Shown piece by piece: positions 26,400-60,420 of a DNA stretch of 64,000 bases (positions within the stretch are counted from its first letter, which is position 1; each line of letters opens with the position of its first letter). The DNA is from Catajapyx aquilonaris (lineage: Eukaryota), in the NCBI GenBank assembly GCA_000934665.2, contig KZ537999.1, forward strand, positions 248,001 to 312,000. Reading direction: 5' to 3'. The translations under genes and the position numbers were made by a program. The notes under the pieces were generated by a model, which ran no database searches, was not told the DNA's origin, and was given only the letters and a program-made list of their open reading frames with translations.

Positions 26400-28911
26400 A
26401 TGGCTTCTGCGAAGGAACATGTTGTTGGCATTGACCTGGGCACCTCCGGGTCCAGAATCGCAGTGAAGAAGAAGGGAAAAGTTCAGCTCATTCCCGACTA
26501 CCAAACAAAACGTTCTTCCATTCCCAGTGTCGTCTCCTTCATCAACTACAATGAAATTTCCGTTGGCGAACCCGCCCAAAAACAGGTCAGACTGAGAATT
26601 AGGGCTACCATAATATATTATTATCATTATTATTCAAGTTACATAACTGCAGGTTCCGAACATCCAATTGCAGATGGGCAAGAATTACACTGTGTTTGAC
26701 ATGAAGCGTCTGATTGGAATAGAACAAAACAGTGCCATTCTACCTGGGGAAAGATGTTACTGGCCTTTTCAAGTGTCTTTCACTGAGGGAAGAGCAGCGA
26801 TTGCTGTGGATATTAATGGCATTCAGCATGAGTACACGCCTGAAAGAATCATGTCCTGGGTGTTGGAAAAAATGTTGGAAAATGCCAAGAAATTTTTGGG
26901 TGTTCAAGCGACCCAGGCGGTAATGACTGTGCCTACGTATTTCGACGATATCCAACGATATCAAGTGACTAATGTAGTTGCGGAAATGACAAATATCACT
27001 CCTATTTACGTCATCGATGAATGCAGGGCGGCTGCACTTGCCTACTGCTACAAAAATAATATCAAGGACGCAAGTCATGTTCTGGTGTATGGCAGATTAG
27101 TGCAATGGTTCTGGCCAATTTGAAGGAGACAGCTGAGAAATGTCTGAGGACGAAGGTGACCGATGCAGTGGTGACGGTACCTGCTTACTTCAACGACGTC
27201 CAAAGACAGGCGACCAAAGACGCGGGACAGATCGCTGGTCTGAACGTCCTCCGAATAATAAACGAACCAACAGCAGCAGCCATTGCTTACGGATTGGAAA
27301 ACAATTCGAAGGAAGAGAAAAACGTGTTGGTGTACGATCTCGGAGGCGGAACATTCGACGTCACATTGCTGACCATCAAAGGTCTGACCTTCACTGTCAG
27401 GTCGACAAGTGGCGACACCCACTTGGGAGGGAGAGACTTTGACAACATGATGGTGGATTTCTACGTTGACATGTTGAAGAATAAACACAACAAGGACATA
27501 ACCCGGAACCACAGGGCCATGCAAAGATTGACAGTGGTCTGCGAGGATGCCAAGCAAGCTCTGTCCAGCACTACAAAGACAGACGTTATTGTAGACAACA
27601 TATGTGATGGATTCGATTTGAAACACAAGGTATACTTTCAGGTAAAAATAGTGACACACTTATATGTCACCCAATTCTTTGATTACTCTCGCAGTTTTCA
27701 AGAAACAGATTCAACGACCTATGCAAGAAACTGTTCCAAAGGACACTTGACATTGTGCAGCAAGCGCTTTCAGACGCCAAACTAGAAAAAGACGAGATTG
27801 ACGACGTGGTATTGGTGGGAGGTTCTACTCGAATCGTGAAGGTAGAGGAAATGATCAAGGACTTTTTCAATGGTAAAGAGCTCTGCAAGAACGTGAATCC
27901 CGAAGAAGCCGTTGCCTTCGGAGCTGCAGTGCAAGCAGCTGTCCTTCATGGGGATGGCAAAGGTCACCTCATAAACAAAGTGGTACTGGAGGACGTACTT
28001 CCCATGTCCCTGGGAGCCAGTGTTGATGGAAATGAAATGGTGGTGATCTTAGAGAAGAATACCAAAATACCATGCAGAAAATCCAGCGTATTTGATATGG
28101 ACAAAGGAGGCGAGGGGAATATTTCTATGCGTGTGAGTATCACTCAATATTATTTTGTACATGTCATGTAATTACGTATAGTATGAAAATTATGAGGCAT
28201 TTGTCCAAACAAAATATCACAGTAAAACCTGTATAATACCAAAATGGCACATTTTCGCAGTCAGATAGAAGTTTCTGCTATACCCGAGATCTGCTATAGG
28301 CAGGGTACGATGTAATTCGCAGTCAAGAAATTTAAAATTGTCAGTTGTAATGGAGTGGTGGTTCTATTTTTCAGGTGTTTGAGATAGAGAATTACGAAGC
28401 ACAGAAAAACAACCTTCTTGCTTCGTTTAACTTGGGAAGATTACCAACTAAGTCAGGAAAATCCAAGATTGTTGTGGCTTCTTCCATTGACGAGAATGGC
28501 ATTCTCAACGTCACAGCGGAGACCATGACAGGTCAAAGTATGAACATGACCATAAATAGAACAAAGGGAGGGTTCAGCCAAGAAGAGATTGACCAGATGA
28601 AGTTGGAAGAGGAGAGCCTTAAAGTAGGAGAAAGAAGGATCAACGAACAATTTGCTTTGGAAAATTTCATATATTCCATTAAAGAAGAACTGGAAAGTAC
28701 ATCATCTGCTGCATCAAAGTCAATGTCAGAAAAACAGAAAAATCTTTTAATAGAAATGTGCAATTCCCTTTTGGAATGGATAGAGGAAACCCCACATACA
28801 GAGAAGGAACAGTTTGAAAAGGAATTGAGCAATCTTAAAGAAGTGTGTTTAACCTTCAACTTGCAAACTGTGTATAAGATTTCAAATAATGAAGGTACAT
28901 CTTCTGCATAA
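26400..28911 (+). pseudogene. Locus G: second double-NBD HSP70 gene, frameshifted by an internal deletion
   Basis: Exons 26400-26585, 26674-27629, 27695-28132, 28375-28911. Altered-type NBD (GIDLGTSGS...DASHVLVY) switches at ~27091 into canonical-type [11 protein letters not shown]...IINEPTAAA...DLGGGTFD in another frame; the first frame stops at 27123. Confidence 0.8.
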
Positions 28912-30919: not shown

Positions 30920-32213
30920 ATGGAGCAAGTTTATTTACGTCCCAGGAAGCCAAAAGGGAAGACTAAAAAGGAAGATCAAATTGGAAATTTAGAGATCGAC
31001 ATGGCACGTGCACATGTTCATGATCGAGAAAAGACCAAATCACTCCATGAATACAAAATGTCCTTTGTTGAAGACGATCAAGAGGGAGGATGTTCCAGAG
31101 GCAAGAAAAGGTCAGGAACAATGCTGGAAGAAGAGGTCGAGGTCAAGAGGGCAAAGCTGTTCTCTCCAAGGAAGTATGCTTCATCTGGATCTGCCACTGG
31201 TAATCTTCATGAGTACAGAATAGCATTCGACATGTCTCACGACCAGTTGAGTCATGAATGCAGCTTAATAAAATTGGAGGATGATGTCATCGACAACAAG
31301 AGGCAGAAAAAAATTCCTCCAAAAAGAAAAAGGTCTCTAAGGTGTTACCAATCAGAAGGTCAGGGCATGGAGAAGAGAAGAAAGGTCGATATCGATGTAG
31401 TGGTGGATATCAAGTATGACGGAGGAATTGTGAAAATTTCAAAGGACAAACAGCTGATGTCCTGGAACAACGAAGTTACATGCGAAAAGAGGGGAAATCG
31501 TGTCAACGTCACCATGACTAGTAATTCATTGTTTTTTATGTAATCATAAAACTGCACTGCATATATTTAACTATTCACAGTCTCGTGCAGAACCAAATTT
31601 TAAATCAATAACATTTTAGTAAGTTTTTAGAATACTGTATGACTTTATAAATATTTGGCATTATCTATACAATTTAATATTTGCCTGGCTTACTTTATGC
31701 TAATTACATCTAATTACAGGGGGAGAAAGCAGAGAGGAGGAGAGAAGTACGCACGTCACGAAATATTCGGACCACACAACTGAATTAATCATCAGCGTCG
31801 ATGCTAACGGAATAATTGCCAATAAAGTTTCCAAAACACAAGCCAAAACAGCCAATGGCGAACGTAGCAAAGTAATTAGCGAAGATGACGCTGATGAGAA
31901 GAGGAACTCTGAATTGCTACAAATGCGAAATGAAGCGCAGAAATTTCGCGATAAGGAAGGAGCGAAGAGAGACAGAGATGTTGCCAAAACAAAATTGGAA
32001 TCTTACGTGTACGAAGTAAAGCAAGCAGTAGAAGAGGAATGTGATGTTAACGTTGTTTCCGAAGAAGAGAAGCAGAGTGCTAAAGATGAATGCACTAAAA
32101 TGTTGGACTATCTGGACGAAGACCAGCATGCTGACAAGAATGAGCTAAAATCTAATCTGAAAAAATTTAAAGAAATGTTTTCACATCTGTTGAAAAAGTT
32201 GGGCAAAAAATGA
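30920..32213 (+). CDS. Locus I: NBD-less HSP70 derivative (basic disordered region + degenerate SBD + lid, ~364 aa)
   Basis: Exons 30920-31520 and 31720-32213 (phase-1 GT-AG intron). Motifs VDIKYDGGIVKI, LIISVDANGII, AKTKLESYVYEVKQ. No NBD exon seen upstream. Confidence 0.75.
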
Positions 32214-38422: not shown

Positions 38423-39505
38423 CGTGACCTACCGTAATAATTTTCACTATACAGAAAACTATTTGCGACCTTAAAATAATATAAGTTAAATATGAACAGT
38501 GTTACGCTATGATATGAAATAATTTCGCTACCGTACTCTAAGCATATCCATACGAAATAAAATAGTGCACTCACCTGAAGCAAACGGCTGATTTACCAAT
38601 TCCTCTGTATATCGCCTAGGCTGGAGTCGCCTCTGCATCAACTAGATAAGATTATCGCTAAGGTGAGTGAAAAATGGTTAGTGGGTGAATCATGAGACCG
38701 CAAACTTACTTTAACAAGTAATGATACTAATAATTAATTCTAGCCACAATAATTATGGCTAGAAATAATTGCTATAGTGTTATTATGGCAGCAATCATTA
38801 AATTGCTGTAATGGGTTAGTGTGCAAAAATAGGACATGTGCTATTGCCTCACAGCTTGCTTTTACCTGTTGTGGCCGTTTGAGGAGGTATAACGTTTCAA
38901 GTGATAATCTTATCAGCAGACTACAAAAAAAATCAGTCTTCCCATGGATATTGATTTAATTCTTTCTCAGCCAATATTTTCATACACATACCGCCATTTT
39001 AAAGTACCGGTAAATCATTTTTCCACCTCAGCTGCAATGATTTCCAATAATAAATATTTCGCCAAATGACCACGGGCCATTTCCAATTGGTAGTCACAGA
39101 TCTGTACTGGCCAACCTCTGGAAACACAATTCCAGAACTGCGTAGGTATCTCAGTACTTGGGCCACGTCAGTGGTTGTATGAAACATTTCTGGGTTAAGT
39201 GGAGGTCCTTTGAACTTCGACCATGGTCATGTTTGGTGGCCATAATATTATCTCATCATCATCGTAGGGCTTGTGGCGGGTGTAGAGTCAGTAGGAATTA
39301 TTGACGTGTTTTGGGGTCAACTCCTGGAATTGTTGCTGGCGGCTTTTGACTGATACAATCTCTTCCTTGCCCTTTGATGTGCACTCTACGTCTTGGAAAG
39401 CGTCTGTACTGCGTAGTAGAGTTATTATGGTCAATTAAATATAGACGGGATATGTGGTGGTGGGAATGGTACAGAACTCGGGCCACGTCAGTGCTTGGGT
39501 GAACC

Positions 39506-41965
39506 ATGTTCTGGTTGCCAGTGCTTCTCCTCTGCTCCGTGGCCATGTTCGGTGGCCACACCTCATCATCATCGTTGTCGGGTGTTGGGAAGAATGTGTC
39601 TCGTCTGATGGAAGATGAGAAGAGGAAGGTTGGGGAGGAAGGAGAGTGGTGGGCAGTGTCCAGACTGGTGAGGGGTGTCCTGGACACGAGAGATGACATG
39701 CGGGAATGCGGCCTGGTCCTGTCCACTGACCTCGTCGGGTCATCGGGCGTCTGGGAGGGAGTCTGGAAGCCGCTTCTCAAAAGTCAATCGGACCAGTACC
39801 TCCCGTCCTTCTCCCTCCAGATGACCACCTTTCCTTACTCCTTCCGAGACTACCCCTGTCTCAAGCGTCAATCTGACCTCTTGGACTTCACCACCGTCCC
39901 TCCTGAACTCCTCATGACCTACTCTGGGTGGTCATCCTCCCCCTGCACCCTCCACGTTCTCTTCCCCTCCTCCCCATCCTCTCTCCCTCAACTACTAATG
40001 TCCACTGCATTCAAGGTCAAGGTCAGTCCACTCGACGACCGTTTCATCATCCACTTCCCTCACCAGTCGATAGCACTCTCTGCAGCGGACAGAAAGGTCT
40101 ATCGAGTGTTGACCTCACCCCCTGTGAATGCCCTCAGGCTAAAAGTTTCCACCAGGATGGAAGAAGATGGTGTCATGAGGATGGAGACTGTCTGCTTCTT
40201 CTGCGCAAAAGGGGGTCAACCAATGGCGATCAATCTCGGCGGTGTTCTCCACGCGCACAAGCCAACAGTTGTCGGATTCTTCAACAACTATGACAAAAAC
40301 AAGCTGAACAAAGCACCATATGTGACTGGAAGTTACTTCAAGCCAATTGACATGGAGGACGCTCGAAGGAGAAGAAAACAAGTGGGACTGGTTAACTTTT
40401 TTTTTTTTTTTTTTTGTAATTACCCCGTAATGACCGTTTAAGGGTCTTGAGGGGGGTGGATTACCACCATCTCCTTCAATTTTCAACTTTTTCTTCAGAC
40501 TCCGGTGCAAGGAAGAAAGGACATGGGGAAAGGATAGGGATTTTTGGGGAGGGAACATGGGTGCAAGGTGCACGTCTGAATAACGGGTCATGTGCTGTTC
40601 CCCAGGAGGTTAGGTTGCCAGACACCTCCTTGGTGCAGGTCAGAGACCCTCCCGACGCAGGTGAAAGGATAGTTCCCCAGGCGGGGATCGAACCTGGGGC
40701 CTTTCACACAGCAAGCCGTGACGTTACCATCACGGCCACCACACCTCCCCGTGGGACTGGTTAACTTAGACTATTATGAAAGGCTCTACATAATGGGCGA
40801 GGAAGCGTTGAATGGTTTCATTTCGGAGATTTACGTGAAGGGGCCAACCAGTGCCGACTTCGACCTCAGGCTGGAAAACGGCACTTGGGAGGGCCTAATG
40901 CCAGATTTGTTGTCAGGAAGAGTGCATTCACTAAGTATAGTGATATTCACGGAGGACACATACCGACAAACATTCCTCGGGTATCCATTCGTTTTCGCAT
41001 ACGCTACATTCATGACCAGAAGACCCGGTGGCGTAATCAGCTGGAAGGTCATCTACAGGCCTTACGCCCTCCCCTTCTGGGTGTCCTTGGGGGTCACCCT
41101 CGCCCTTCTGCCGATTGCGATGAGCAGACTCTCCCGCTGCAAGACAGGTGGAGGGAGATCAGAGGCCGAGGAGGATTCCCTGACCATGGTAGGATCCCTC
41201 CACATCTTGACCAGCCACCTGATAGAACAGCCCGTTCCCTTCCCCAAGTCACGCCGCTTTCTTTTTCTGGCCGCATCCTTCCTCTTTCTCTCCACAGTGG
41301 TCATCACTGGCTACAAGGACAAAATGGTCGCCTTCCTGACCTTTCCTCCGAGGGAGTTTGTCCCGAGGAACTTCGGGGAACTGGCGGATTCGGATTGGAC
41401 CATCGAAACGGATATGATCAATTTTCTGATATGGAAGAAATTAATCTCCTATATTGACGATCCTCTCCACAACACATTAGATACGAAGATATCCATGGGT
41501 GTGAGTATACAGAGTTGCCTGGAAAGGATGCAGAGAGGGCGGTTCGTTTGCGCTGGTGCAAACCTGCTATTGGATCCGGAGATTTATCTATTTCGCGACA
41601 CTTCTGGGCAGCCAACATTCCAGTATTCTGATGACCACATATTTCCAACTGCCCTTGGGCCCGCTTCCCCACGGGGTCTAACCATGGGATATCACATCGT
41701 AAAGCAATTCATCCGATTTTTCAATGAAAATAACATGCTGTCAGTCTGCATGCGTGACTACATGTACCTGATGTTCCTCCGCTCGTTGGATCTAATCAGG
41801 GCCTGGGAGATTGGCGAACATGAAAAACCAAAGGAGTTTCTGACCTGGAAGAAGCTCTCGACCGTCTTCGCCATGTGGTTGGTGGGACTGTCCATTGCAC
41901 TGGGTGCATTCGCAGTCGAAATCGTGGGTCGCAAGGGTACAGTGTGTCTCAAGCAAAGGAAGTAG
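39506..41965 (+). pseudogene. Intronless divergent ionotropic receptor (IR/iGluR-like), interrupted by a SINE
   Basis: Signal peptide; S1-like ENGTWEGLMPDL; TFMTRRP...WKVIYRPY preceding TM1; further TM segments; S2-like VPRNFGELADS; final TM LSTVFAMWLVGLSIALGAFAVE. Removing the 369-bp insert plus one TSD gives a continuous 696-codon ORF (RRKQVGLVNLDYYER). Confidence 0.8.
40399..40750 (-). mobile_element. tRNA-derived SINE
   Basis: 17-bp TSD GTGGGACTGGTTAACTT (40382-40398, 40751-40767); on the minus strand A-box TGGCCGTGATGG, B-box GGTTCGATCCC and a poly(A) tail. Confidence 0.9.
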
Positions 41966-44975: not shown

Positions 44976-45675
44976 AGGCGTACTGGTTTTAATTAGTTTA
45001 TCATATCAATGTATACGGCATGCCTGTCGTGCCGCTATCGATCTTGTAAATAAGTTAGACGTAAGGCCCGTATGTAAGAGTCATGTGCAAGAAGTAAAAA
45101 AGTGTGGGGCCGATTTTTCCTGTCTGTTAAGAGCTAACGGTATTAACGAAAATAAATTTTTTATATGTTTGAACCGTTACAAGTGCGGATATCAGAGTGT
45201 CAATACACAGCTCAAGCATCAAGACAGCCATGGCAACAAGATAAAGCCGGTGGAAGACATTGCATGTACTCTTCAAAGCATTCCGATAAATAGAACTTGT
45301 AATCAAACGACCATTCCAGAGAAGGCCACGCTCACAACATGAGGTTGATGGTGTCCATGAAGACTCTGATGGTGATCATTCAAGTTTGGGTCCAATAATA
45401 CACAAGTAACACTTGAGGTAAGAAAAGACGTTTCACAAAATTATGTACACCTCTCATGTATAATATTGCTGAAGAAATTTTTATGATTTCCGTTGCCAAA
45501 TGTACACCCACTTTAAACCAATTCCTGAGTTCATACTGTATTTTTTCTGTATCAATAAAAATATTCTTAAACAGAGTCTTGTGGTTAACTTTAATATTGT
45601 TTACTTACAAATCATGGGCAGTTATTATGATGTTATTTTTTATTGCTCACTTGTCGACGAAGATTTTGGACTCCC

Positions 45676-48600
45676 ATGGCTGGTGAGAGGCCTCCAGTGG
45701 TTGGGGTCGACCTGGGCACATCCGAGTCCAGAGTAGCAGTGTGGAAAGATGGAAGAGTTCATATTATTCCAGACTACCACACAGGAAAGCAAGCTACACC
45801 CAGTTATGTGTCAGTCACTGATAACAATATTTACATCGGAGAACGCGCCAAGGAGAAGGTCCGATGTGCCCCATTTAATAATCGAGAATGTTAACTAAAC
45901 CGAGTTCATTTACAGATGGGTAGGAATATGAAGAACACGGTGTTTGGCATGAAGCGTCTGACTGGACGAACAAACGACGATACTCTTCTACCAACGTACA
46001 GGTGTCACTGGCCGTTTAAAGTTTCAGTGACGTCTGGAAAAGCGCAAATTGTGTTACAAATCGAGGGAGAGCAGCGAGTGTTTAATCCAGAACGTATCAT
46101 GTCCTGGGTGCTGTCAGAAATGATGGAAAATGCGGATAATTTCTTAGGACTGCATGTGACCCATGCTGTAATGACGGTGTCCACTTATTTCAACGAGGCT
46201 CAACGAGAGCAAGCGACAAGAGACGTCGTGGATATGGCCAGTGTTAGCTTGTTACATGTCATCGACACTAGCACTGCTGCAGCTATTGCCTACTGCTTTC
46301 AAAAAAATTTAAGAGACGCCGGCTATGTACTCGTTTATGATATTGGCACATACGCATTCGAAGTGTCCGTGCTACTTGTGAGAAACTTTACTCCCATTAT
46401 GGTTGTGAGTGACAATAACGATATTGTGGGAAGCGAGAACTTTGATCGACTCATAGCAGACCTGTGCTTGAAGGAAATTTTGAAGAAGTATAACCTGGAC
46501 TTGAGGTTTGATGCTAAGGCGATATCAAAACTCCTTCCTGCTTGTGAGGAAGCCAAGAAAACTTTATCTGTCCAGAAAGAGGCAAATATATTTGTGAAAA
46601 ATCTCTTCAAAGGTCGCGATGTCACTTTTAAGGTATGGCTTCGATAGTTGCTTTTAAGTCACGTTATAACAACATCAATGTTTCTTGCATTATGCAAGGT
46701 ATCATTTTCACGGCATTCACTCAACTCGATATAATTATTGATGCATGTGTTTGCTATTGATTGTTTATTTGTGTTTCAGATTTCGCGACAGCTTTTTGAA
46801 GATCTGTGCTCAGATATGATCAGCACAACATTGAGTGTAGTGGACCGTGCGCTGTGGACGGCCAGAATAGACATGAGGCAAATAAAGCACGTGGTTCTGG
46901 TGGGTGGCTCGACCCGAATACCAAAACTGAGGGAAATGGTTAAGGATTACTTCAAAATGGAAGACCTGGACCAGTGCATTGAACCAGAGGAAGCGGTTGT
47001 GTACGGAGCCGCTATTCAAGGCGCTCTCTTAAATGGAAGTATAAATATCGAGGGCGTTTGGCCATTGATTAACATGAAGATGACACCAGTGTACTTCCCT
47101 GTTAGTAAATTTTTGGCACCAAATATTATCAGCAACGAGGAAGTGCCAACTGTCAGTAGCAGACATGTGCATGACTATCCTCACAACAAGAAACAGAGGA
47201 ACAGGGCGAAAGGAAGTTTTGAGGGCAGTAATAAATATGACCAGGTACACGACAATAGCAATCCGCAAGTGTCCCACCAATATCAGACTTCTTTTGCTGC
47301 AAAAGAACAAGATAGTGGTAGAAGTATTAAGATTAATGACGAATCGTTAAAGTCACCAGAGCAAGTAGAACAAACCCAGCCCAGTCACACCGATTTTAGT
47401 GACAACGCTAGATCAGGATATGTGGGTCATCTAGAAAATGAATTGCATCAATACCGACTAAGGTCTGATAATTTACTTGACGGAATTCACAGCAATTCTA
47501 TCACAGACGCAAGGAAACTGGAGGAAACTGCTGACAATAAGGGAGAGTTTAGAAACATCACTAGTCGGAGAAATGAGAGTTCACGAAGACACCAACAGTT
47601 AGCTAAGTACACTGAAAGCAGCAGCATTAACAATCCCGTGAAGGTCACGAAAAACAAGGCTGCGCCATTAGACGGGATTCGTCAGAAATTAGCGCATGAC
47701 ATATCCCAAAAGGAGTCTATTAAAAAACACCGACCAGCTATAAATTCCGAAGCCAAGGGTAAAAGTGTCAAGAGCGATCAACGAAAGCATGAACCTGCTC
47801 ACATTGCAAGAGATAAACGCAAGCACGGAGCAATCGGAAAGTCTAAAAGAACACATGTTGACAAAAAGACAGCTGAAATTAAAATTCTCAATGAAGGCAA
47901 CACTACTCATCATCCTAACAAGTACAGCCACTTGCACCAGTACCGACTACATGCTAACGAATCGCATAACCAGTTTTATGAGGATTACATATCAGGCAAT
48001 GGTATATTGGAAACGACGGGTAAAAGTGTCAGAAGAACCTCCCCCGAGATAACTAGCGTTCCAGGTAGCCCCGAAATTGATGTGGTCAAGAACAACGCCG
48101 AAATAAGGGATTATATCAGTTTCAAGTTGGACATTAGGTATGAAGGGGGCATTCTGCATATTCCAAAGAAAAATATGACAACCCCTTCCAGCAAAGATAT
48201 GTGGTGCATGAACTTGGGAGGAAACCTTGTCAGCATCACATTACCTGTAAGTGACGCATAATTTTTTATCCTCCTAACACAAGATGAATTATTTCTGTAT
48301 AATGCCATAGACAATATTCACATCCTAGTACTACCCCTTCCCCTTTATTTAACCTGGATTTGTCTTTCAGAATGCAACATCATTCGTTACAAGCCTCTTA
48401 TTCCACCAGCCGCATATTGATTTATTATGCTTAATTGTATATTATGTTATTAAATTTCAGGCAAGGACATTCAAGACTGGAAAGAATGACTCCACTAGAT
48501 CGGAGAGCAAGGTTGGCCTCACTCTCAAAATCGACGCCAACGGAATTATCGACATCAAATCACCAGATCAACGCAGTGTGAAGTTAGCCAGCAATCGAGA

Positions 48601-48898
48601 TGTGTCAGAAATGCGGAAAGAACTGCAGACATTTCGGGACAAAGAAGTGACGATTAAAAATAGGGACGTGGCCAAAACAAATTTGGAGAACTACGTGTAC
48701 AAACTGAAGCAGGCCGTGGAAGACGAATCAGTTGGCACTAAAGTGTCGGAAGAAGAGAAGAAACGAGTGAAGGACGAATGTGAACGAATGTTAGACTTTC
48801 TGGATGAAAACGACATGGCCGAAGAAAGCACATTTGTTTCTGCGCTGCAAGCGTTCAAGAAAATGTTCCGACCATTGGTTCGGATTTTGATAAAATAA
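45676..48898 (+). CDS. Locus M: altered-NBD HSP70-like protein with ~350-aa disordered linker, degenerate SBD and lid (~934 aa)
   Basis: Exons 45676-45858, 45916-46632, 46780-48246, 48461-48898. Motifs [63 protein letters not shown]. Confidence 0.83.
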
Positions 48899-50043
48899 TC
48901 TATGGGAATCAATGTTAGAGTTTTTACCGGTTCGCTGCCAACAAAATTATTATGTTTTGCTTAATAAAAAGTACATTAACTCATTTCAAAAACAATACCA
49001 AAATGTATGCCGCATAGTTAATGTATAGTTTTGTATTTGTGACAATAGTGGCAACATCTTCAATGATTCAATAATACAGTGTATCATTGGGGCGCAACGG
49101 TAGGATAAATCCAAGTCAGGAATAACTGCCATACATTACTATCAGCGCATATCACTTGATAGTCTGGTGATAAACGTACATACAAATGCACTTGTCACGA
49201 GTTCTAAAACAAAGCGAAGCGGTCATTCCGTGACAGTTCGTTGCTTAATCAGCGTTGGACGTTAAGGTAGAGGTTATTAGCTGAACACCCATGTTTGGAG
49301 GCACATTTGAAGGGATGTGTGCTTTTCCCTCTGCCGATACTCTTCTTAAGAGAACCAAAAACCGAGAAGAGGCAGCAAAATAATTTTGATTGATTGTCCA
49401 CCACACCACTTTCTAAAGAAATTCATTGACAGGTAAGAAATCTTTCATTCATACATAACATCTGCTCAGTTTCCCAGGGTAAAAATTAAGATAATTTCGA
49501 GCCAAATTGCCACAGAAGAAGCCGGAAGCATTTTAAAAATACTCGTGTTTAGTAATGTTTTTTTTAAAAATTATGGACAAAATTTATTTCACAAATTGCC
49601 CAGTACAATAAATATCAATGGAGTAAATGTGTGTGAATGATTCATTGTCCGGTTTTGATGGTTGTCACATTCTACAAACAGGATTGTACCGAGCCAAATT
49701 TATTTTATGAAAAATAATACTTACTTTTCGTTAACAAGAAGGTAGTAAAAAAACCTTAGCATATAATTATCTTATTATTGCCAAGAAAAAGTTGCGCCAA
49801 AGTTATCCTATGTGCCTCGTTCTCTGGCCACATAAATTTGAAAAAAACTGAAAATCTTCCAGCGCATTAGCGATATGTTTGAGTAGCTGAACCTCCCCGC
49901 TTTTAAACCAATCCTCATGAATTTCCCTGTTTTTTTTCCAGTGATTTTATGCTCGGATTCATGAGTAACTTGAGGTGAAGAAAGTGGCTGTCCGAGGAAA
50001 TTGCTTTGCTTGAGCCTTTGTAAATTAGGCCTACGACAAATTA

Positions 50044-50418
50044 ATGGGGTCTATTTCGCAATACTTTTTGAGCAAAGCGAGAGGATGTTACGAATATTTT
50101 GTTGGCTTATTGTATCGCATCAGAAAAAGGAGCCAAGAGTCAGAGGAAAACAGGAAGTCCTCTTTGGATCATGACCACCGAGAGAGCAGTCTTACCAACG
50201 AGCAACGAACAAGTACGCCCCATGAATATCATCGTTCATACGTCAATCGCACATCAGATAAGCACCAGAATACTGGCCCCAACAGAACAGAAAGGATCCG
50301 AAACCAGGACGACAAAGGTGCAAGATCGGATTCTGCTGATTCTGGGGAAGACATTTTTCAATACAGACGTTCCTATCCCAATTCAAGTGCACAATTACAT
50401 GGTAATCAGTCCCGCTAA
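50044..50418 (+). pseudogene. Locus N: truncated paralogue of NBD-less locus O (linker only, 124 aa)
   Basis: Ends FQYRRSYPNSSAQLHGNQSR* versus O FQYRHSYPTSSAQLHDNQPRKG; upstream 49275-49438 resembles 51124-51235. Could alternatively be a real small protein. Confidence 0.6.
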
Positions 50419-51393
50419 GAGTATGTTTTTGATACCACGCAGGGTATTTTTCTAACATTTTATTCTCACCTGTCGAGGTATTTTTTTGAAATTTTCTTCC
50501 TTCTTTGTACTCACAGCGTTCTCTTTTTATACAGATCAAAAAATAATTCTGTAATAAAGTTTATGCTAACAACAACATTTACACTACCTCCCCCTTCCAC
50601 ACACACCCGTCCTGATTGTTGACTGTGTGCAGTTGGCAAATATTCCAATGTTATAATATTGTAACTACTGTATTTGAATAACCTGTCGACGACAAACAAA
50701 TAAATAAATAAAATAATTCAATTAGAAGCAGAGCTATATTTAAATCGATATAAACTCGATTTATAAACACTGTATGGAAGCAGAAGTATAGGCCTACTCC
50801 AAGTCAGAATGATATTCGTGGTAGAAGGATGCGTGTAGTCCGCGTACAACAATGGCAACATATTGAAAGATGCAACTAAATAAAATTTATCGGAGCAGGA
50901 AAAGCAGTCGTTTTTTTAAATTTATCAGCAATGGCACGGTGGGATTCATGAACGTTAGAAATAACTGCCTGTTATTATCAGCCAGTATCACTCTTTTATC
51001 TGATAAAGATGCACTCGAATGCCATGGCTACGAGTTAATGGAACAAAGCAAAGCATGTGAAAATCCCGACGTCATTCCATATGTGTCCTGGTTGGTTAAC
51101 CAGCATTGCCGTGAAGATGAAGCTTATTAGCTAAATACCGGTGTGGGGAGGCCAAAAACTGACGAGAGGCAGCAAAATAATTGGGATTGGTTGGACACCA
51201 CACCATGTTCTGAAGAAACTATCCGACAGGTAAGAAGCATCCTAATTAATTTGGAATGAATTTTTGTGCATCATACGCACCATAATTCTAATTAGTGTTT
51301 GCTTCACATTTCAGGGGTTCGTGAGGGACAAAAACTGAATGAAGTTGCAGTCGGAGGAGTGTCTGCTTGACCGTGTATAAATAAGGACGCAAA

Positions 51394-52576
51394 ATGGCAT
51401 TTGTGTCAAATTTTTTTACTATTAAAGCAAAAGTAGCAGTAGATTTTTTTAACAAAGCAAAAGAAAAATTTGAATCATGGTCGGATATATTGGATGGTAC
51501 AACAGAGCCTGTATATGGTGTGGTATACAGGAGTTGTCCTTTTCATTATGTCTTTGTTGAGAGAAGTACCCATCAACAACGTCCCCCTTCCCAGGATTAT
51601 CGTAGCTGTTACGTCCAACCCACATCACCACGACCGGATGACCACCAACAACGTCCCCCTTCCCAGGATTATCATCACAGCTACGTCCAACCCACATCAT
51701 CACGACCGCATGACCACCAAAATCTTCACACTTACAGATTAGAATTTGCCCAAAGCAATGCCAACCAAGGCAAAAGACCGAGTTCTGCTCCTGCTGCTAG
51801 AGAGAACCATTTTCAATACCGACATTCCTACCCCACTTCAAGTGCACAATTGCACGATAATCAACCACGAAAGGGATGTTTATCTCTCTTCATAAATTAC
51901 AAGGCAGGCATATTAAAGATTAGCACAAAAAATCTCCAAAAGCCCTACAAAAACATCACGTACGCTAATTGTAGAGGAGATCCTGCCAGAATCACTTTGC
52001 CTGTAAGTATAATTTCACGTTTTATAATTAATTACATTTACGGGACAAACATCGTCACATCAGCGACATGCATGACCATAAACTCACTCTAGAACCTAAA
52101 CATTAACAATAATGTAACTTTTATTGTTGCAGGTTGACTACCTCACATCGTCCCGTAGCACTGATGACATAATTTTCAGCGTCGACGCCAAATGTTTTCT
52201 GGACATAAATGTTCGCGGGACATCTGGCGTTACAAGCCTGTGCACAGACGACAAAGCCAGGGACAGGAAACTGGCTGAAATGTGGAATGTGCTAGACACG
52301 TTTCGAAAAAAGGATGAGGTGAAGAAAAAGAAAGATGCAGCCAAAAGATACTTGGAGTCTTTCATTTACAACCTGAAGCAGGCCATGGAAGGAGCACCAG
52401 AGGATGTTCTGCCGAAAGGACAGAAGGAGGAAGCAATTAAGAAGTGCAATAAAATGTTGGACCTTCTAGAGGAATGTGACAATCTGGAAGACGAAATGTT
52501 CAAACGTGAGGTGGAAGATTTTAAGGCAACGATGGTACCCCTAATGGAAAAGTTAGGGCGTTCCTTGAATCAGTAA
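51394..52576 (+). CDS. Locus O: NBD-less HSP70 derivative (repeat linker + degenerate SBD + lid, ~350 aa)
   Basis: Exons 51394-52002 and 52133-52576. Motifs LFINYKAGILKI, IIFSVDAKCFLD, AKRYLESFIYNLKQ. Confidence 0.77.
51571..51720 (+). repeat. 72-bp coding tandem repeat (2 copies of a 24-aa unit)
   Basis: HQQRPPSQDYRSCYVQPTSPRPDD / HQQRPPSQDYHHSYVQPTSSRPHD. Confidence 0.93.
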
Positions 52577-53223
52577 TTGGGGGGCAGCAGGAATCTGCTA
52601 CGACAAATGTTTCATCCAGCGAAATATCATAATATTGTAACTATTATATAATTTTCTGTCAACCGCATCATTAACCAAATAAACAGATTGAGGTAACATT
52701 ACAAGCAGAGGGATATTATTATTTTTAAACATGCCTGTCTCAGTATCTTCCAATCAAGTTTTCCTACAACCAGATATATAAATCCATAATTATATACAGC
52801 TGGACAACAACGTTTCCGGCGATTCCATGCTTCTCAGTCGTTACAAATACGACCCAGAATAATTTACGTACTGTACCGGTACGTTATGTAACATATTTTG
52901 CAGTAGATGGCGACACTCCTGCACCAAGGCCTCTTAGAATAGATTGCAGTCAGATTAAGTATGATTAGTTGCTCTACAGGTGATCAGTGAGGATAAAGCA
53001 AAAGGTACGAGCTCGCCCATAATGGCCACATGACCTTCCCTTTTCTATTTGCAACTCGTTTCAAATCTAACAGCATTTGACCTTGTCATAATATGAAAAT
53101 ATCATAAATGGAATATCAATGTGAATATTGTTTGCATGTTGCAGAAACAACGAGCCATAATAAATAGTTGAAAACCTATACAAATGAATTCAATCATATA
53201 CTAACTGCATGAATATTAACAGG

Positions 53224-54954
53224 ATGACCGAGACAAGAGCGATTGGGATCGACCTGGGCACCACCTACACAAGGGTGGCAGTCTGGCACGAAGGTCAGGT
53301 CAAGATCCTTCCAAACGATCACGGAAACCAAGCAACACACAATTACGTCGGCTTCAACGACACGTCAGACAGGCTGGTTGGTGATCCCGCAAAAAAGCAG
53401 GCAAGCAACGTCTCAACAATTGGCAAGGCCTTTTATTTGACGCCTTATTTTGACAATTGCAGGAATTTTTGTACTCGAAGAGCACCGCTTTCGATTTCAA
53501 ACGCCTGATAGGTCGCCCTTCAAAGGATATCCTCACAGAAAGCGACAAACTCAAGCGGTTCTGGCCATTTGAAGTGGAGGACAGGGACGGTTACTCGGCA
53601 GTCAGTGTAATATACGACAAAAATGAACGATGGTTTCACACAATCACAATGACAGCCATGATACTGGAAAAGATGAAGGACATCGCTACAGATTTTTTGA
53701 AAGCACCGGTGGCCCACGCATTGGTGACGGTACCAGCCTCTTTCAACGACGTCCAACGACAGGCGACGATCGACGCTGGACGTGTCGCCGGATTTGAAAC
53801 TGTCCACCTTATAAACGAGCCAACATCAGCCGCTATTGCCTACGCAGTGGACACCAGACTTCAGAAGAAGAGCAACGTCCTTGTGCTCAGCATCGGAGGA
53901 GGATCACTTGATGTATCGGTGGTCGAAATACAAGGACTGAACATCCAGGTGTTGTCCACTGTCGGAGATCCATGCATGGGAGGAATGGACCTCGACATTA
54001 GTCTAGCAGAGTACATTATGAATGAGGATAAAAGCATCCCGATTGACCAAAACGATACAAAGTCGCTAATGAAGGTCCGTAACGCTTGCGAGAAGGCAAA
54101 GCAGAATTTGTCACTAATTAAAGAGACTCGAGTGGAAGTGGATGGCCTGGAGGGAGGGAAAAATTACACCACCACGGTATGCATCATGACACATTTTTAC
54201 ATTTCTTATCTGCATGAAATAATGACATTGTCCGTCGCTGGCTACCCCATCATTGGGACAGTGCCGTGATGAATGTAATAAAACAATGCATGAGTCGATT
54301 TCATTTCAGATTACGCAGGACACGTTTGAAGAAGTGTGCAAGGACTTCTTTGTCAAAACTGAAGGACTAGTTAAAGAAGCTCTCGAGAAGACTGACCTGC
54401 AGGAAACAGATATCGACGACGTGCTTCTTGTGGGTGGGTCTACTTACATCCCCAAAATACGACAGATTATTCCAAAAGTGTTTGGCGGTAAACAACATTG
54501 CAAGAGCGTACATCCGGAGGAAGCAGCCGTTTGTGGAGCTGCAATGCAAGCAGCGGTTGCCATCAACAAAGAGAAGAGTGAACGAATCAGAGACCTGGTC
54601 GTCGAGGATATAGTTCCTCTGAAGATGCGTGTTGTCATTACTGAAGGACAGATCACCATCGAAATGATTCGTGATTCGAAAATTCCATTTGCAGACAAGT
54701 TGGACCACATTAAGGTGACTTCTGCACTTTAGACGTTGTGACCATTATTTTTAAACACATCCCATTTCACAATTTTTTGACAGGAAGGGAAAGATGAAGT
54801 CACCTTGGATTTACGGTCTGAAAGACATGGCGTACCACGTGGTGAACCTGAGCTTCAAGTGACAATAAACACGGATGAACAAGGAGTCCTCACTGCCAGG
54901 GCCAGTGCATCAGTTTTTGGTCAAAAGAAGACGATCAGAGATATTACGTTCTAA
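53224..54954 (+). CDS. Locus P: lid-less divergent HSP70 (NBD + shortened beta-SBD, ~488 aa)
   Basis: Exons 53224-53400 (GC donor), 53463-54176, 54310-54714, 54784-54954. Motifs [37 protein letters not shown]; last exon [25 protein letters not shown]...DITF*. Confidence 0.82.
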
Positions 54955-55484
54955 ATATTAGGGGAAGCCACTCTCACACTTGTTGCAATATGCAAGATGT
55001 TCAAATTACAGGAGCATGTGGATGTTAAGGACATGTTTATACACCAGATGAAGACCTGAACTTCAATATGATGAGCATAAAATTTGTCATTGTTAATGTA
55101 GGCCTACTCCTCTGGGATTACTTTCTGATCATGGAATCGGATGTTTCATAGAAAAAGTACAATCCTCCAGAAAAATTTTGAGGTAAAAATTTATTTTATG
55201 CAAAAATAATATTGCAATACTTTTCCACCGTCACACTCTCATAATATTGAAATTTAAGTGTCACTCTGATCGTTTTGCATTTCAGGGTTTCAAATAAATA
55301 GACGCTATAACAAAATGGCTGGGTTGGATTTATGAGCAACTCATTGTCATTGTGAAGGTAAAGAAAAATGTAACAATAAAATAATTCAGTATGGTTCTAA
55401 ATCTTGTTGTGGACATGAAATCTTGTTGTACGTACTGTACTTCGAATTTTGTAACTTGCAGGTCGTGGAGATAATTAGTGTTGT

Positions 55485-55485
<1 letters not shown>

Positions 55486-55547
<62 letters not shown>
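55486..55547 (+). repeat. (CTA)n microsatellite
   Basis: Directly visible. Confidence 0.97.
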
Positions 55548-57746
55548 ACTATTTTACGCGATATTGTATACCTGCCCGTCTATCTGATTCGTTGGACACT
55601 TTTAGCTTGCTTCAATGAATAAGACCTCTATTGTGTAATGACATCATGAATATGGTATATATGCCTGCTGTAGTAGTAGTATAGACGTATAGTGGTCTAT
55701 TATTTGTCATCTTCTCAGGCCATGCACACTTAGGGCCTTATGCGACAGACGGCCTTGTTATACAGATGACAAATCTGTATGACATCAGACAAATCAATAG
55801 CCAAACAATTCCAAGTCTAAACTTCAGTCGAATGTTTTTCTGAACAGCTTTCCTCATATTTTCTGAATTTGATATTTATTGAGTGTAGCATATTATGACG
55901 CGGTATAATGTGTGTAGCACTTACACGAAAAGGGAGCACTTTTATTGCGATCTCAACTACCTGTGACAAATATATCAATCCTCTTGTACACTAATAATAA
56001 GATCAACTGAATTCCATCTCCCTCTCCTATTCAACCCATATTTTGGGACGATAAAATCGACATGACCGTGGCGAAATTTCCACATGAAGAGCTGGAAAAG
56101 TATCCTGACCATCATTTGGCAACCCTGCAGAGTCATGGCAACTTTATCAGCTGATATTTTCACTTCGCTTGCAGTTTCAAACCACATAACTTTTTAATAG
56201 TTTCAAATGACGTCATAATTTATGGGCGATCCCTTAGCTTATGTTCCTTTGGCTACAGACACATTACATGTGGCTATATTACAGTAGGCTGTACAGTACA
56301 GTCATGTTATTGTTTTATTCGGTACAAGTTTATTATTGTGCATATGACCTCGTAAGTGAGAAGAATTAAATTTCATGATACTTGCACATATTGCATCTTA
56401 AAAGTTTGCCAGCAGAATTTTTTTCCCTTCATTGTCATGAAGGAAATAGTTTTAAAAAGTGTAGGCCAGGGTGTGCTGCCCCCATAAATATGTCGCAACT
56501 ATATTGCACAAATATGTTCTCAGAACGTACTGATTTCCTTATGATAACAAGGAATGCAGTCGTTAGTAGGGGACGTTTTCATTCAGGCTTTTATTTGTTC
56601 ACCGATTTGTTAACTCTTGCGATAACATGTTGGTGAATTATTTAATCTGATATCCAGCTCACAATGCGAGACAAATGATGTCGGGTTTAAAATGGGACAG
56701 ATAAATATGTGTTAAAAGAAAATGTCCCCATTGAGCTCTAAAAATTAAAGTACAACCCATTTTATTGTTCAGGGCATAACTTTCATTCTACCTTGTCAAG
56801 GGCCTTTGTTTTTACAAAATCTCAAGAGTTGTTATATATATCATTTTTCCCCGTATTGTGAAGGTTACATAATACAGTGCACACTTGAATCAAGTTTGAA
56901 TTAAGCAGATAAGATTATATGGAGAGGACTTTAAGTTAGTGCCAGCACTGCATGCGTCATGATAAAATCGCGTTAGGAGGTGAATATGAGAGTGACAACG
57001 CCTTTAAAGAACATCAAGGACAGCCGAAATAGAAAAAAAAATACAAAAGTTGATTGTACAATAAGGGAATGATAAATTGATCGCTTGGCATGTAAGGTAA
57101 TGCTCATTTCCTACGAGTTTTGCACCGGCTCTTACTTCTTGGTCATTTTGACACACAAGCACTAGAGTCGCAACTACGCAGTATGTTCATGATGTAAGTT
57201 GTTCTTTACCTCTTATGTCAACATCAGAAAATGAAAGAGGCGAATTAAACTGTTTGGTTTTATTATTTACATTCTCTTACACAACAGTAAATCTATAGTC
57301 AGGATTTATTATAATAATTATGTAATCCTTTAGAGTCGCCATTGTCTGTCTACGTACTGCCACGTGATAAGTGATAAGTTATCATCCTTTGAAGACAAGT
57401 GGATTGGGTACGTAGCTTGGGCATATTTTCCCCCCAGCTTCATTCCTGCAGTTATTTCGTGGGTGTTATCAATTATTCAAGAAGTGTGAAACACTCTCAC
57501 ATTAGCATGTCCTGTGGGTCACACATCGTGAGACAGTAAGTGAGCAAACATTAAACACTTGGTTATCAAACAGAGAAGTTATGTTTTGATTATGATCATC
57601 TCTTTCCTACATGTGTTTATTCATAAGAAAGTTATGTATTCTTCGTGGTTAGGATAATAAAAATGTTAAAGATTTGCAATATTTATAGGCGAAACTACAG
57701 AAAACACTCATTGGATTTCTAATAAGACTGAAGAAGGATATTAGAA

Positions 57747-58312
57747 ATGGGACCAGCTGTGGGCATAGATTTGGGCACCACGTGTTCCTGCATCGCCGTG
57801 TGGAAAGATGGCAGTGTTAAGATACTCTTCAACGATCGTGGAAATCGAGTGACGCCAAGTTACGTCGCGTTTGATGGAACTGACAGACTCATAGGAGAGG
57901 CCGCCAAAAAACAGGTCAGGCAATGGTTTTGGGTGCATTATCTATACAGAAAAATGTTTGCAATTATTTTTAAACCCCCTTTTAAATAGCTCAGTGATTA
58001 CAGCCTTTTTCAAAATTGCAGATTGTGTTGTCACCTGAAAACACCGTGTTTGATGCCAAGCGCCTGATTGGTCGCAAATATGATGACCCCCACGTTCAGC
58101 ATGACTTGAATTCCTGGTCTTTTCAAGTAGTAAACGAGTCTGGGAAACCCCGTATTGTAGTCGAGTATCAAGGTGGAAAGAAGAACTTTAATCCCGAGCA
58201 GATTAGTTCCATGATTTTGGCTCATTTGAAAGCAACAGCTGAGTCCTTCCTAGGGACCAAGGTGACCGACGCGGTGGTGACAGTTCCGGCCTATTTCAAC
58301 GACTCCCAAAGA

Positions 58313-58344
<32 letters not shown>

Positions 58345-59967
58345 TCTGAACGTCCTGCAAATTATCAACGAACCCACAGCAGCAGCCATTGCTTACGGAT
58401 TGGAAAACAATTCGAAGGAAGAGAAAAACGTGTTGGTTTACGACCTCGGAGGAGGAACCTTTGACGTCACTGTGCTGACCATCAAAGGCCTGACCTTCAC
58501 TGTCAGGTCGACAAGCGGTGACACCCACTTGGGAGGGAGAGATTTTGACAACATAATGGTGGATATATGCGTCGATATGCTGAAGAAGAAGCACAAGAAA
58601 GACATCAGAGGGAACCACAGGGCCTTGCAAAGACTGCGAATCGCCTGCGAGGAGGCCAAGCAAGCTCTGTCTAGCATTGATAACACAGACGTTGTAATAG
58701 ATAACATTTGCGATGGAGTCGATTTAAAACACAAGGTGTATATCAAAGAATTTAGACTAATGGCCATATTATTACCACATATAAGTTGTTATTCCGGCCA
58801 TTAAAATATATGAATTTATTTCAGATGTCTAGACTCAAATTCGAGGACCACTGCCTACCGCTGTTTAGAAAGACCTTGGAGATTGTGAAGAAAGCTCTTT
58901 CTGATGCCAAACTAGAAAAAAAAGACATCCATGACGTTGTTCTGGTTGGTGGTTCCACCCGCATCCCAAAAATACAGGCCATGGTTAAGGATTTCTTCAA
59001 CAATAAAGAGCTCTGCAGGAATGTCCATCCGGATGAAGCCGTTGCAGTTGGGGCCGCTGTTCAAGCCGCTGTCCTTCACGGTGACAACAAAGGTAACCTC
59101 ATAAACGAAGTGGTGCTGGAGGACGTGCTTCCCATGTCTCTTGGAACCGAAGTGGACGGGCACATCATGAGAGTGATTTTACCAAAAAACAGCAAAATAC
59201 CATGCTCAGAATCCAAGCTATTTACAACATTTCGTGATCAACAGGATAAGATCAACATTCGCGTAAGTATTGCTGCTGAAAATAATGTTGCTTGAGTAAA
59301 GCCGCTGAACCTAACTGTACTATGGGCGCCAAAAGAATTGACCGGAGTTGATGGGTATATGGCGCTATATACCCATCAACTCCGGTCAATTCTTTTGGCG
59401 CCCATAGTACAAGTTGCAGCCATGAAGAGGCTATATGTTGGTGCAACTCATCCATTATTTTTGTAGGTCTTTGAAGGCGAGAATGAGGAGGCGATGGACA
59501 ACAACCTGCTAGATTCATTTGAACTGACAGGCTTTCCTCTGCAGCCAAAAGGAGTTCCCAAGTTCAAAGTGACCTTTGAAGTTGACACAAATGGCATTCT
59601 GAGCGTCTCCGCAGTTGACACAGCGATGGGTATAAAGAAGTGCATAAAGGTCACGAATGCAAGAGGACGATTCACTCAAGAAGAGATTGACAAGATGAAG
59701 GCTGAGGATGAAACACTCAATGAAGGGGCGAGAAAGGGTAAAGAGCGAGACACAGCCAAGTCAGAATTGGAATCTTACGTCTATTTTGTGAAGGAGAAAC
59801 TGCAGTGCATGTCTACTGGATCGGCTAGTCGAGAAAAACGAAAAGATGCTCTGCTAAAAAAGTGCATTGATCTCCTTGACTGGCTGGATGAGGGTGAAGT
59901 TGCGGACAAAAAAACATGTGAAGAAAAACTGCGCATATTAAAAAAGGAATGGGAAAAATTTTCATAA
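57747..59967 (+). CDS. Locus Q: near-canonical HSP70 family protein (~606 aa, no EEVD)
   Basis: Exons 57747-57914, 58022-58735, 58825-59262, 59467-59967. Motifs [54 protein letters not shown]. Most similar to the second half of loci A and G. Confidence 0.9.
59316..59411. mobile_element. Perfect palindromic MITE-like foldback in intron 3 of Q
   Basis: 45-bp perfect arms (59316-59360, 59367-59411) with a 6-nt loop GGCGCT; TA flanks around CTATGGGC...GCCCATAG. Confidence 0.75.
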
Positions 59968-60256
59968 GGAGCAATAAGTAGCGAAGGACAAGGTAATTAA
60001 GAAAATCGCTGCCCCATAATGCGATCATATGGCTGGCCTGAAAAACAATAAACTTTATTATGCAATAAATTCTGCTATGTAAACAGTTATAATAATTATT
60101 ATGAAGTATGAGACGATGTGATATTCCAGATACTCCATTGATCGAGACATCGGGTCCATTAAGACAACTTTGAATATTACCAGCAGTGAACATTCCAAAA
60201 TATTCATTATTTCTAAATTAAATAAATAATTTGCCTTAGTTTGTATACATGTTTGT

Positions 60257-60420
60257 ACGAGGGCACGTCAATAAAGAGTAAGAAATAATTCATTTTTCAC
60301 GGAATGCATTAACCAGGTTTATATTGTGTTTTTCGACAAAGCCCCCATTGAGTTGTATGCACTTGGCCCAACATTTCTGGCAGTCGTGGAAGACAGCATG
60401 CTAGAACCAGTTTTTTGACA
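60257..60420 (-). mobile_element. Mariner transposase 3'-end remnant
   Basis: Minus strand reads KNWF*HAVFHDCQKCWAKCIQLNGGFVEK, like the mariner C-terminal 'RWxKCIxxxGxYVEK'; ends at a TACGAGGG-type terminus. Confidence 0.6.

Follow-up and report, generated by a model that had tools for sequence, protein, structure and literature searches.

Can two neighbouring genes that each encode part of an HSP70 chaperone be regarded as the halves of a split protein, or are they separately truncated copies that lie side by side? The question is raised by a stretch of 64,000 nucleotides of the Catajapyx aquilonaris genome (assembly GCA_000934665.2, contig KZ537999.1, positions 248,001 to 312,000 of the forward strand), hereafter called the window, which is nearly full of HSP70-derived genes on both strands, with short spliced introns. 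An initial annotation described here a gene O with a C-terminal lid and no nucleotide-binding domain (NBD), next to a gene P with an NBD and no lid; a third locus, K, looked like a fusion of the two, from which it was suggested that the products of O and P act together. Our main finding points elsewhere: we hold, with moderate confidence, that each of the two is a transcribed member of a dense, fast-evolving tandem HSP70 array and was truncated independently of the other, and that their adjacency is a by-product of birth-and-death evolution.

The basic description of the pair held. O and P are adjacent, both lie on the forward strand with intact reading frames, and 647 bases separate the stop codon of O from the start codon of P (Table 1). 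Expression was assessed from contigs of one public run, X1, whose kind is not on record, placed over positions 45000-60400; since these contigs carry spliced joints, X1 derives from RNA. Spliced contigs cover both genes. For O, a contig spanning 51411-52002 is joined across the intron to 52133-52678, and thus reaches the gene's own 3' untranslated region (UTR), next to an AATAAA motif. For P, a contig crosses the first intron and continues to 53618; the joint is printed as 53396|53459 with five ambiguous letters, and a canonical acceptor results solely from the placement 53400|53463, so that this intron is of the GC..AG type, as had been proposed. A further contig (54873-55203) passes the P stop codon unspliced, into the 3' UTR. 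Introns 2 and 3 of P were read from the sequence alone, the listed contigs showing no splice there. The contig that joins P exons 1 and 2 begins with 54 letters that match nowhere in 45000-60400, and an acceptor cag lies one base before the ATG; these letters may come from a 5' exon further upstream, beyond that range, from a spliced leader or from faulty assembly.

The view of O as a lid without an NBD was right on both counts but incomplete, as the gene also has a probable 5' exon of its own, a disordered repeat region and a reduced beta subdomain of the substrate-binding domain (SBD-beta). Its first coding exon matches no Pfam family. The disordered region in it is rich in Q, P, H and Y and contains a 72-base repeat in 2.1 copies (51570-51720). 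The last 46 residues of the exon match a profile of the equivalent piece in six other loci of the window (C, D, G, I, K and N; O left out) at E 3.4e-6, the best of 999 shuffles reaching 2.7, and its location and spacing, together with the intron shared after IT[LM]P, point to this piece as the first half of a reduced SBD-beta. Its likeness to canonical HSP70s across the atypical group to which O belongs is weak (best E 0.014; E <= 10 in 69 of 136 real proteins versus 11 of 272 controls).

The second coding exon corresponds to positions 498-596 of the Pfam HSP70 family (PF00012) at E 2.3e-4 and 20.0 bits, borderline with respect to the 20.6 cut-off, and alone it matches solved HSP70 SBDs in a phmmer search of the PDB, among them the SBD of PfHsp70-x (6ZHI, E 1.9e-9). 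When the last exons of the seven atypical loci are combined in a profile, it matches 4PO2, an SBD of human HSP70, at E 3.5e-26. The AlphaFold model of the exon consists of a hairpin and three helices, with a mean predicted local distance difference test score (pLDDT) of 71, and 80-92 in the helices; the best 10 Foldseek rows obtained with it are all HSP70 SBDs or lids, none at E <= 0.001. From sequence and model together, O carries the C-terminal lid of an HSP70, with a fold predicted to be intact. Two segments of the O N-terminus, DFFNKAKE and EPVYGVV, resemble the end of an NBD by eye; they were rejected as an NBD remnant, with pairwise z values of at most 2.3 and a profile search in which O did not rise above 997 shuffles.

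A transcribed paralogue, O', lies about 2 kb upstream of O. Its 124-codon open reading frame (ORF; 50044-50415) ends where O continues into the SBD. The two loci share blastn blocks of 81-87% identity, comprising the 5' exon (81% over 85 bases, at 49355-49439 in O'), 54 bases of the coding exon at 87% and a block of the 3' UTR, and their proteins align with a score of 144 (z 16.4, 0 of 500 shuffles), the start methionine and first residues being common to both. O' is spliced in X1 (GT-AG joint 49432|49942, listed as 49429|49939, with a further contig at 49974-50686) and has the highest X1 contig depth in the O/P neighbourhood. O probably has a non-coding first exon like that of O', its own X1 contig beginning only at 51411. 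With a promoter, a 5' exon and a start peptide in common with O', O appears to be a gene type of its own, and its product a reduced SBD that is complete in itself, preceded by a disordered arm at the N-terminus, and belonging to an atypical subfamily.

P is of a different make. It has the actin-like NBD of PF00012, exons 1 to 3 covering positions 1-415 of the profile. In an alignment to canonical HSP70, and with Hsc70 residue numbers carried over through that alignment, both P and K keep D10, K71, E175 and D206 and have serine at D199 and T204; P thereby retains four of six catalytic residues, along with the interdomain linker. The best solved relatives of P exon 2 are HSPA6 and Hsc70, and the third is the bovine Hsc70 mutant D199S (1QQM), reportedly poor at ATP hydrolysis; the change made in this laboratory mutant occurs naturally in P and K. 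The SBD-beta of P is shortened, profile positions 416-459 being missing. What is left resembles the canonical-like genes of the window (class 1, below): z values are 7.0-9.4 for exon 4 against B, E, J and Q, and 5.0-11.7 for the tail of exon 3 against B, E, F, H, J and Q, with 0 of 500 shuffles in each case. The same parts compare weakly with K (z 4.5 and 1.9), and with O at z -0.4. The SBD-beta of P thus appears to be of the canonical type, unlike that of O. Past the P stop codon, the string ICKMFKLQEH looks by eye like [11 protein letters not shown] of K; local alignment of the three frames of 900 bases downstream of P with nine lids (27 tests) gave z 1.1 for K and a best value of 3.2 for G (3 of 300 shuffles), and this candidate lid remnant was rejected.

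These results bear directly on the proposed complementarity. P lacks a lid and O has one, as claimed, but both carry an SBD-beta, of different types, and are not complementary halves. Moreover, the gene of C-terminal type, O, comes first on the strand and that of N-terminal type, P, second, which is the reverse of what fission would leave. Taken together, the shared SBD-beta and the gene order exclude a simple fission.

Does K nevertheless link the two genes? K is an intact full-length gene, whose frame is restored by a short GT-AG intron near 36873-36812. The proposal that it carries a P-type NBD was well founded. The two NBDs are sisters (support 100/99) with 52% identity over 240 columns, and their branches are alike in length (0.63 for K, 0.67 for P), showing no acceleration of P. 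The GC donor of intron 1, CAG|GCAAGC, is present in these two alone among the 14 loci examined, and the D199S/T204S-type loop is likewise common to K and P only. The 18-residue motif quoted as identical, [18 protein letters not shown], was found in P (53245) and K (38398), as was the S[LI]GGGS loop, in the form SIGGGS in P (53889) and SLGGGS in K (37761). As for promoters, blastn of the K and P upstream regions gave no match better than E 0.58.

The C-terminal side of the comparison is less specific. K falls inside the atypical clade formed by C, D, G, I, K, N and O, with support of 100/99 when three outside HSP70s serve as outgroup and 100/100 when the beta piece is added, and the strings quoted to relate it to O do exist: KPYKNITY (51940) versus IPYNKCITF (36686), and MWN.L..FRK at 52280 and 36390, one form of which was given as EMWNVLDTFRK. 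K and O are the only loci to have PY in their beta piece together with MWN where the lid starts. To this extent the K C-terminus is O-like; a pairing specific to O is only weakly indicated. K and O group in both C-terminal trees at 80/79, then at 62/64 with the beta piece, and they are the two longest branches of these trees (1.46-1.52 for O); a grouping of O with I is not rejected (approximately unbiased test, p-AU 0.33), and one of O, I and N is borderline (0.086). Separate trees had been suggested as a check, and a K lid no closer to that of O than to those of other loci had been named as grounds for refutation. By identity the K lid is closest to N (35%), I and G (33% each), C (30%) and D (28%), and O comes last of the clade at 26%; the O lid is itself most similar to those of I (35%) and N (32%). 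The SBD-beta of P is of the canonical type, whereas that of K is of the reduced type; an exchange of the C-terminal part must therefore have occurred in one of them, and either K or P is recombinant. K is a normal full-length member, whose P-sister NBD and O-type C-terminus may have been brought together by recombination.

Could O nevertheless provide the missing lid of P in trans, or the two otherwise form a working pair, as the architecture of K hints? The idea draws on a lid-less and a lid-bearing gene lying close together on one strand, on spliced RNA of both in one run, and on K, whose NBD is sister to that of P and whose C-terminus pairs weakly with that of O. However, the lid of O already has an SBD-beta partner in cis, the SBD-beta of P overlaps it and is of the canonical type, and the gene order is reversed. 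The other partial loci do not repeat the arrangement either: the NBD-less locus I lies beside full-length genes rather than a lid-less one, and the NBD-only locus A has no visible partner. An NBD-less locus came to lie beside a C-truncated one in 41% of 100,000 random placements of two of each among 17 loci, and the K lid is the least similar to that of O by identity. Joint action of the two products has its one positive indication in their presence in X1, a single library. For these reasons we do not read P as the partner of O; a split chaperone is distinctly unlikely, and physical cooperation of the two products in any form we judge equally so. Still harder to credit is that O and P are one gene whose exons are joined by back-splicing or trans-splicing, which would restore the order NBD-SBD-lid. 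The 54 unplaced letters do leave the 5' end of P not fully explained, but no joint between P and O exons occurs among the listed contigs, the O contig runs from within exon 1 to the 3' UTR of O near AATAAA, and the last exon of P runs into a 3' UTR; we regard this possibility as barely credible.

A more serious alternative is that O, P or both are transcribed relics, that is, decaying pseudogene fragments with open frames and no useful protein. Damaged copies are indeed present in the array, namely C with its in-frame stop, the chimeric H and O', which is reduced to the disordered part. The lid of O is the most divergent of its clade, scoring 20.0 bits with Pfam compared to 30.8-33.3 for I, K and N; P has lost profile positions from its SBD-beta and carries D199S. 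Against this, the frames have stayed open over 350 and 488 codons despite identities of 26-35% (lid) and 52% (NBD) to the nearest paralogues, and both genes are accurately spliced. P has evolved at the same rate as K and keeps most of its catalytic residues and its linker, and the start codon and N-terminal peptide of O are conserved with O'. We therefore consider decay a real but rather unlikely explanation. Separate truncation of transcribed array members, the reading that we prefer, agrees with the presence in the window of other partial loci (A, with an NBD only, I, without one, and O'), of the chimera H and of the stop in C. Several points weigh against it all the same. O and P are both found in the single run X1, which is compatible with co-expression; K and O pair, if weakly, in both C-terminal trees and alone share the PY and MWN motifs, so that O may have a history specifically tied to the K/P lineage. 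Orthologues of O or P were not found in protein libraries or metagenome contigs, and the analysis covers a single 64-kb window of the genome.

If O and P are indeed independent genes, what might their proteins do? P would bind ATP and hydrolyse it slowly, keep linker docking and bind clients with fast exchange. O, with its own promoter and probable 5' exon, combines a disordered region carrying a Tyr-Arg motif with a reduced SBD-beta and a full lid, and might bind clients without the need for ATP or compete for them. The motif, which resembles [LF]H[EQ]Y[RK][IL], is present in 11 copies in seven of the eight insertion regions, with 0.23 copies expected and 0 of 1000 shuffles, the pattern having been chosen after seeing the data. 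The regions concerned are the disordered insertions of C, D, N, K, I, O and O' (for example, 51394-52002 in O and 46735-48258 in N), and the motif may serve in docking or act as a pseudo-substrate. It is conceivable, although very doubtful, that stand-alone SBDs (O, I) and lid-less or NBD-only ATPases (P, A) form a modular Hsp70 system that is maintained by selection and assembles non-covalently, with the Tyr-Arg motif linking the modules.

The array in which both genes reside comprises about 17 HSP70-derived loci, detected as NBD or lid matches by tblastn with pieces of O and P and with the canonical HSP70 P0033; loci and classes were defined from the ORF catalogue and the NBD tree. Class 1 is canonical-like, with the motif DLGGGT (B, E, F, H2, J, Q and R). 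Class 2 (A, C, D, G, H1 and N) forms a clade at 100/100, has the motif [10 protein letters not shown], lacks the canonical interdomain linker, and shows a phosphate-2 loop altered to D.GTY.F in all five members having that region. K and P alone make up class 3 (100/99). The most canonical locus is J, whose best identity in a large protein library is 65%. The features discussed are collected in Table 1.

Table 1. Positions of O, P and related HSP70-derived loci in the window
Feature	Positions	Strand	Description
O, putative non-coding first exon	51152-51229	+	Donor GT at 51230; inferred 85-base intron ends at 51314; homology to O'
O gene	51394-52576	+	350 codons (51394-52002 and 52133-52573); stop 52574-52576
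O coding exon 1	51394-52002	+	203 amino acids; N-terminal peptide common to O', disordered region, predicted first half of reduced SBD-beta
O intron	52003-52132	+	GT-AG, 130 bases; same position (after IT[LM]P) in K and N
O coding exon 2	52133-52576	+	147 amino acids and stop; last SBD beta hairpin and complete alpha-helical lid
P gene	53224-54954	+	Four exons, 488 amino acids; stop TAA 54952-54954
P exon 1	53224-53400	+	59 amino acids, NBD start; Pfam HSP70 1-53, E 3.5e-15; X1 contig from 53221
P intron 1	53401-53462	+	GC-AG, 62 bases; donor GCAAGC as in K; spliced in X1
P exon 2	53463-54176	+	238 amino acids, NBD core with SIGGGS loop; Pfam HSP70 59-278, E 4.8e-58
P exon 3	54310-54714	+	135 amino acids; NBD end, interdomain linker ([10 protein letters not shown]), first SBD-beta strands; Pfam HSP70 294-415, E 4.3e-28
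P exon 4	54784-54954	+	56 amino acids and stop; SBD-beta end, stopping at the beta8/lid boundary; Pfam HSP70 460-494, weak (E 0.052)
O'	49355-50686	+	Transcribed paralogue of O; keeps 5' exon, ATG (50044), N-terminal peptide and disordered region; stop 50416-50418; without SBD
K	38422-36106	-	Intact full-length gene, five exons; P-type NBD, linker, disordered insertion of about 90 amino acids, reduced SBD-beta, lid
I	30920-32210	+	NBD-less; charged disordered N-terminus, reduced SBD-beta, lid
A	925-2224	+	NBD-only, class 2; frame ends 17 residues past the NBD; about 130 bases to the ATG of B
C	6923-6141	-	In-frame stop within NBD exon 2 (VSVMKV*DF)
H	26421-28848	+	Mosaic of a class 2 5' part (H1) and a class 1 3' part (H2)

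Our preferred reading extends to the array as a whole: with the same moderate confidence, we take it to evolve by duplication, unequal recombination and decay, with partial and mosaic copies as the result. H is an example of a mosaic, H1 consisting of a class 2 exon 1 and half of exon 2, with a stop at 27121, and H2 continuing in another frame as a class 1 gene from about residue 112 through the lid. Locus C is probably a pseudogene or reflects a sequence error. The NBD-less locus I has the chimeric H on one side and J, a full-length gene, on the other. Pfam places the last exon of I at HSP70 positions 468-596 with 30.8 bits, and the donor of this locus is offset by four bases with respect to O, K and N, the frame being maintained. 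E and F (11883-14334 and 16473-19030, reverse strand) are recent duplicates that share a last-exon block of 90% identity, unlike the other loci of the array, whose mutual identities are 20-50%. The class 1 genes lack the ending EEVD, as seen, for example, in B, E, J and Q. Perfect trimeric heat-shock elements number zero in either orientation over the whole 64 kb with its approximately 17 HSP70-type genes, about one being expected by chance. A non-HSP70 ORF (39503-41965, forward strand) between K and N has a weak match, below the cut-off, to Lig_chan (ligand-gated ion channel; E 5.2e-4), and translations near 40700 and 44700 look tRNA-like and derived from short interspersed nuclear elements.

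Searches beyond the window placed these genes within the family at large. With P exon 2, no relative above 43% identity was found in the protein library, and metagenome contigs yielded 70 loci, all at <=50% identity. With O exon 2, 12 matches were obtained among 1.84 billion representatives (best E 2.6e-5), and the nine that were scanned are all Hsp70 C-terminal fragments. The last exon of I had no relative in the protein library search, and an atlas search gave Hsp70-fragment clusters at 0.84-0.88, which are leads only. Overall, generic Hsp70s were the closest that the searches of protein libraries and metagenome contigs came to O, I or P.

Several known systems resemble parts of this picture. 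HSPA14 (Hsp70L1) and its yeast counterpart Ssz1, a subunit of the ribosome-associated complex, consist of an NBD and a truncated SBD without a lid and have an altered ATPase chemistry; their partner is a J-domain protein. P has a similar layout without being their orthologue, for its NBD is nested with that of K in the array; the known partner is not a lid-only Hsp70 paralogue. Neither Ssz1 nor HSPA14 is among the best 60 solved relatives of P exon 2, which are the canonical HSPA6, HSPA8, HSPA1A and SSB1. O, for its part, has the content of the stand-alone SBDs that crystallise with bound peptide (4PO2 and 6ZHI, according to the entry titles). Those constructs, like the lid-less and D199S mutants, are engineered, whereas O is a natural gene that has its own promoter and encodes a disordered N-terminus ahead of a reduced SBD-beta. 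HSPA13/STCH (Hsp70-13) is described as a natural Hsp70 that lacks the C-terminal peptide-binding domain (PMC12692333), the same kind of truncation as in locus A and partly in P; HSPA13 is an old, conserved metazoan lineage, whereas A and P are local derivatives of the array. Plant Hsp70T proteins are described as cytosolic, lineage-specific Hsp70 paralogues that lack only the C-terminal motif, and the abstract of that report names no NBD-less partner (PMC10687569). A narrow literature search returned no account of natural NBD-less Hsp70 genes, nor of such genes paired with lid-less neighbours.

The window thus holds an Hsp70 array that is specific to its lineage and includes truncated as well as mosaic copies, in a family in which truncated forms (HSPA13, HSPA14/Ssz1, plant Hsp70T) are already known. 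The array also carries a caution for the use of genomic context: where tandem arrays shuffle domains, genes that are fused at one locus and split at another arise by recombination, and such a pattern is weak evidence that the products interact. What is unusual is that an Hsp70 gene without an NBD is expressed in nature and has a promoter of its own, and that an entire subfamily has a long disordered insertion in the region of the interdomain linker, bearing a repeated Tyr-Arg motif. Proteins of the O type, if they are produced, would be naturally occurring Hsp70 modules that bind substrates independently of ATP, and could be used to ask what the SBD does without its motor.

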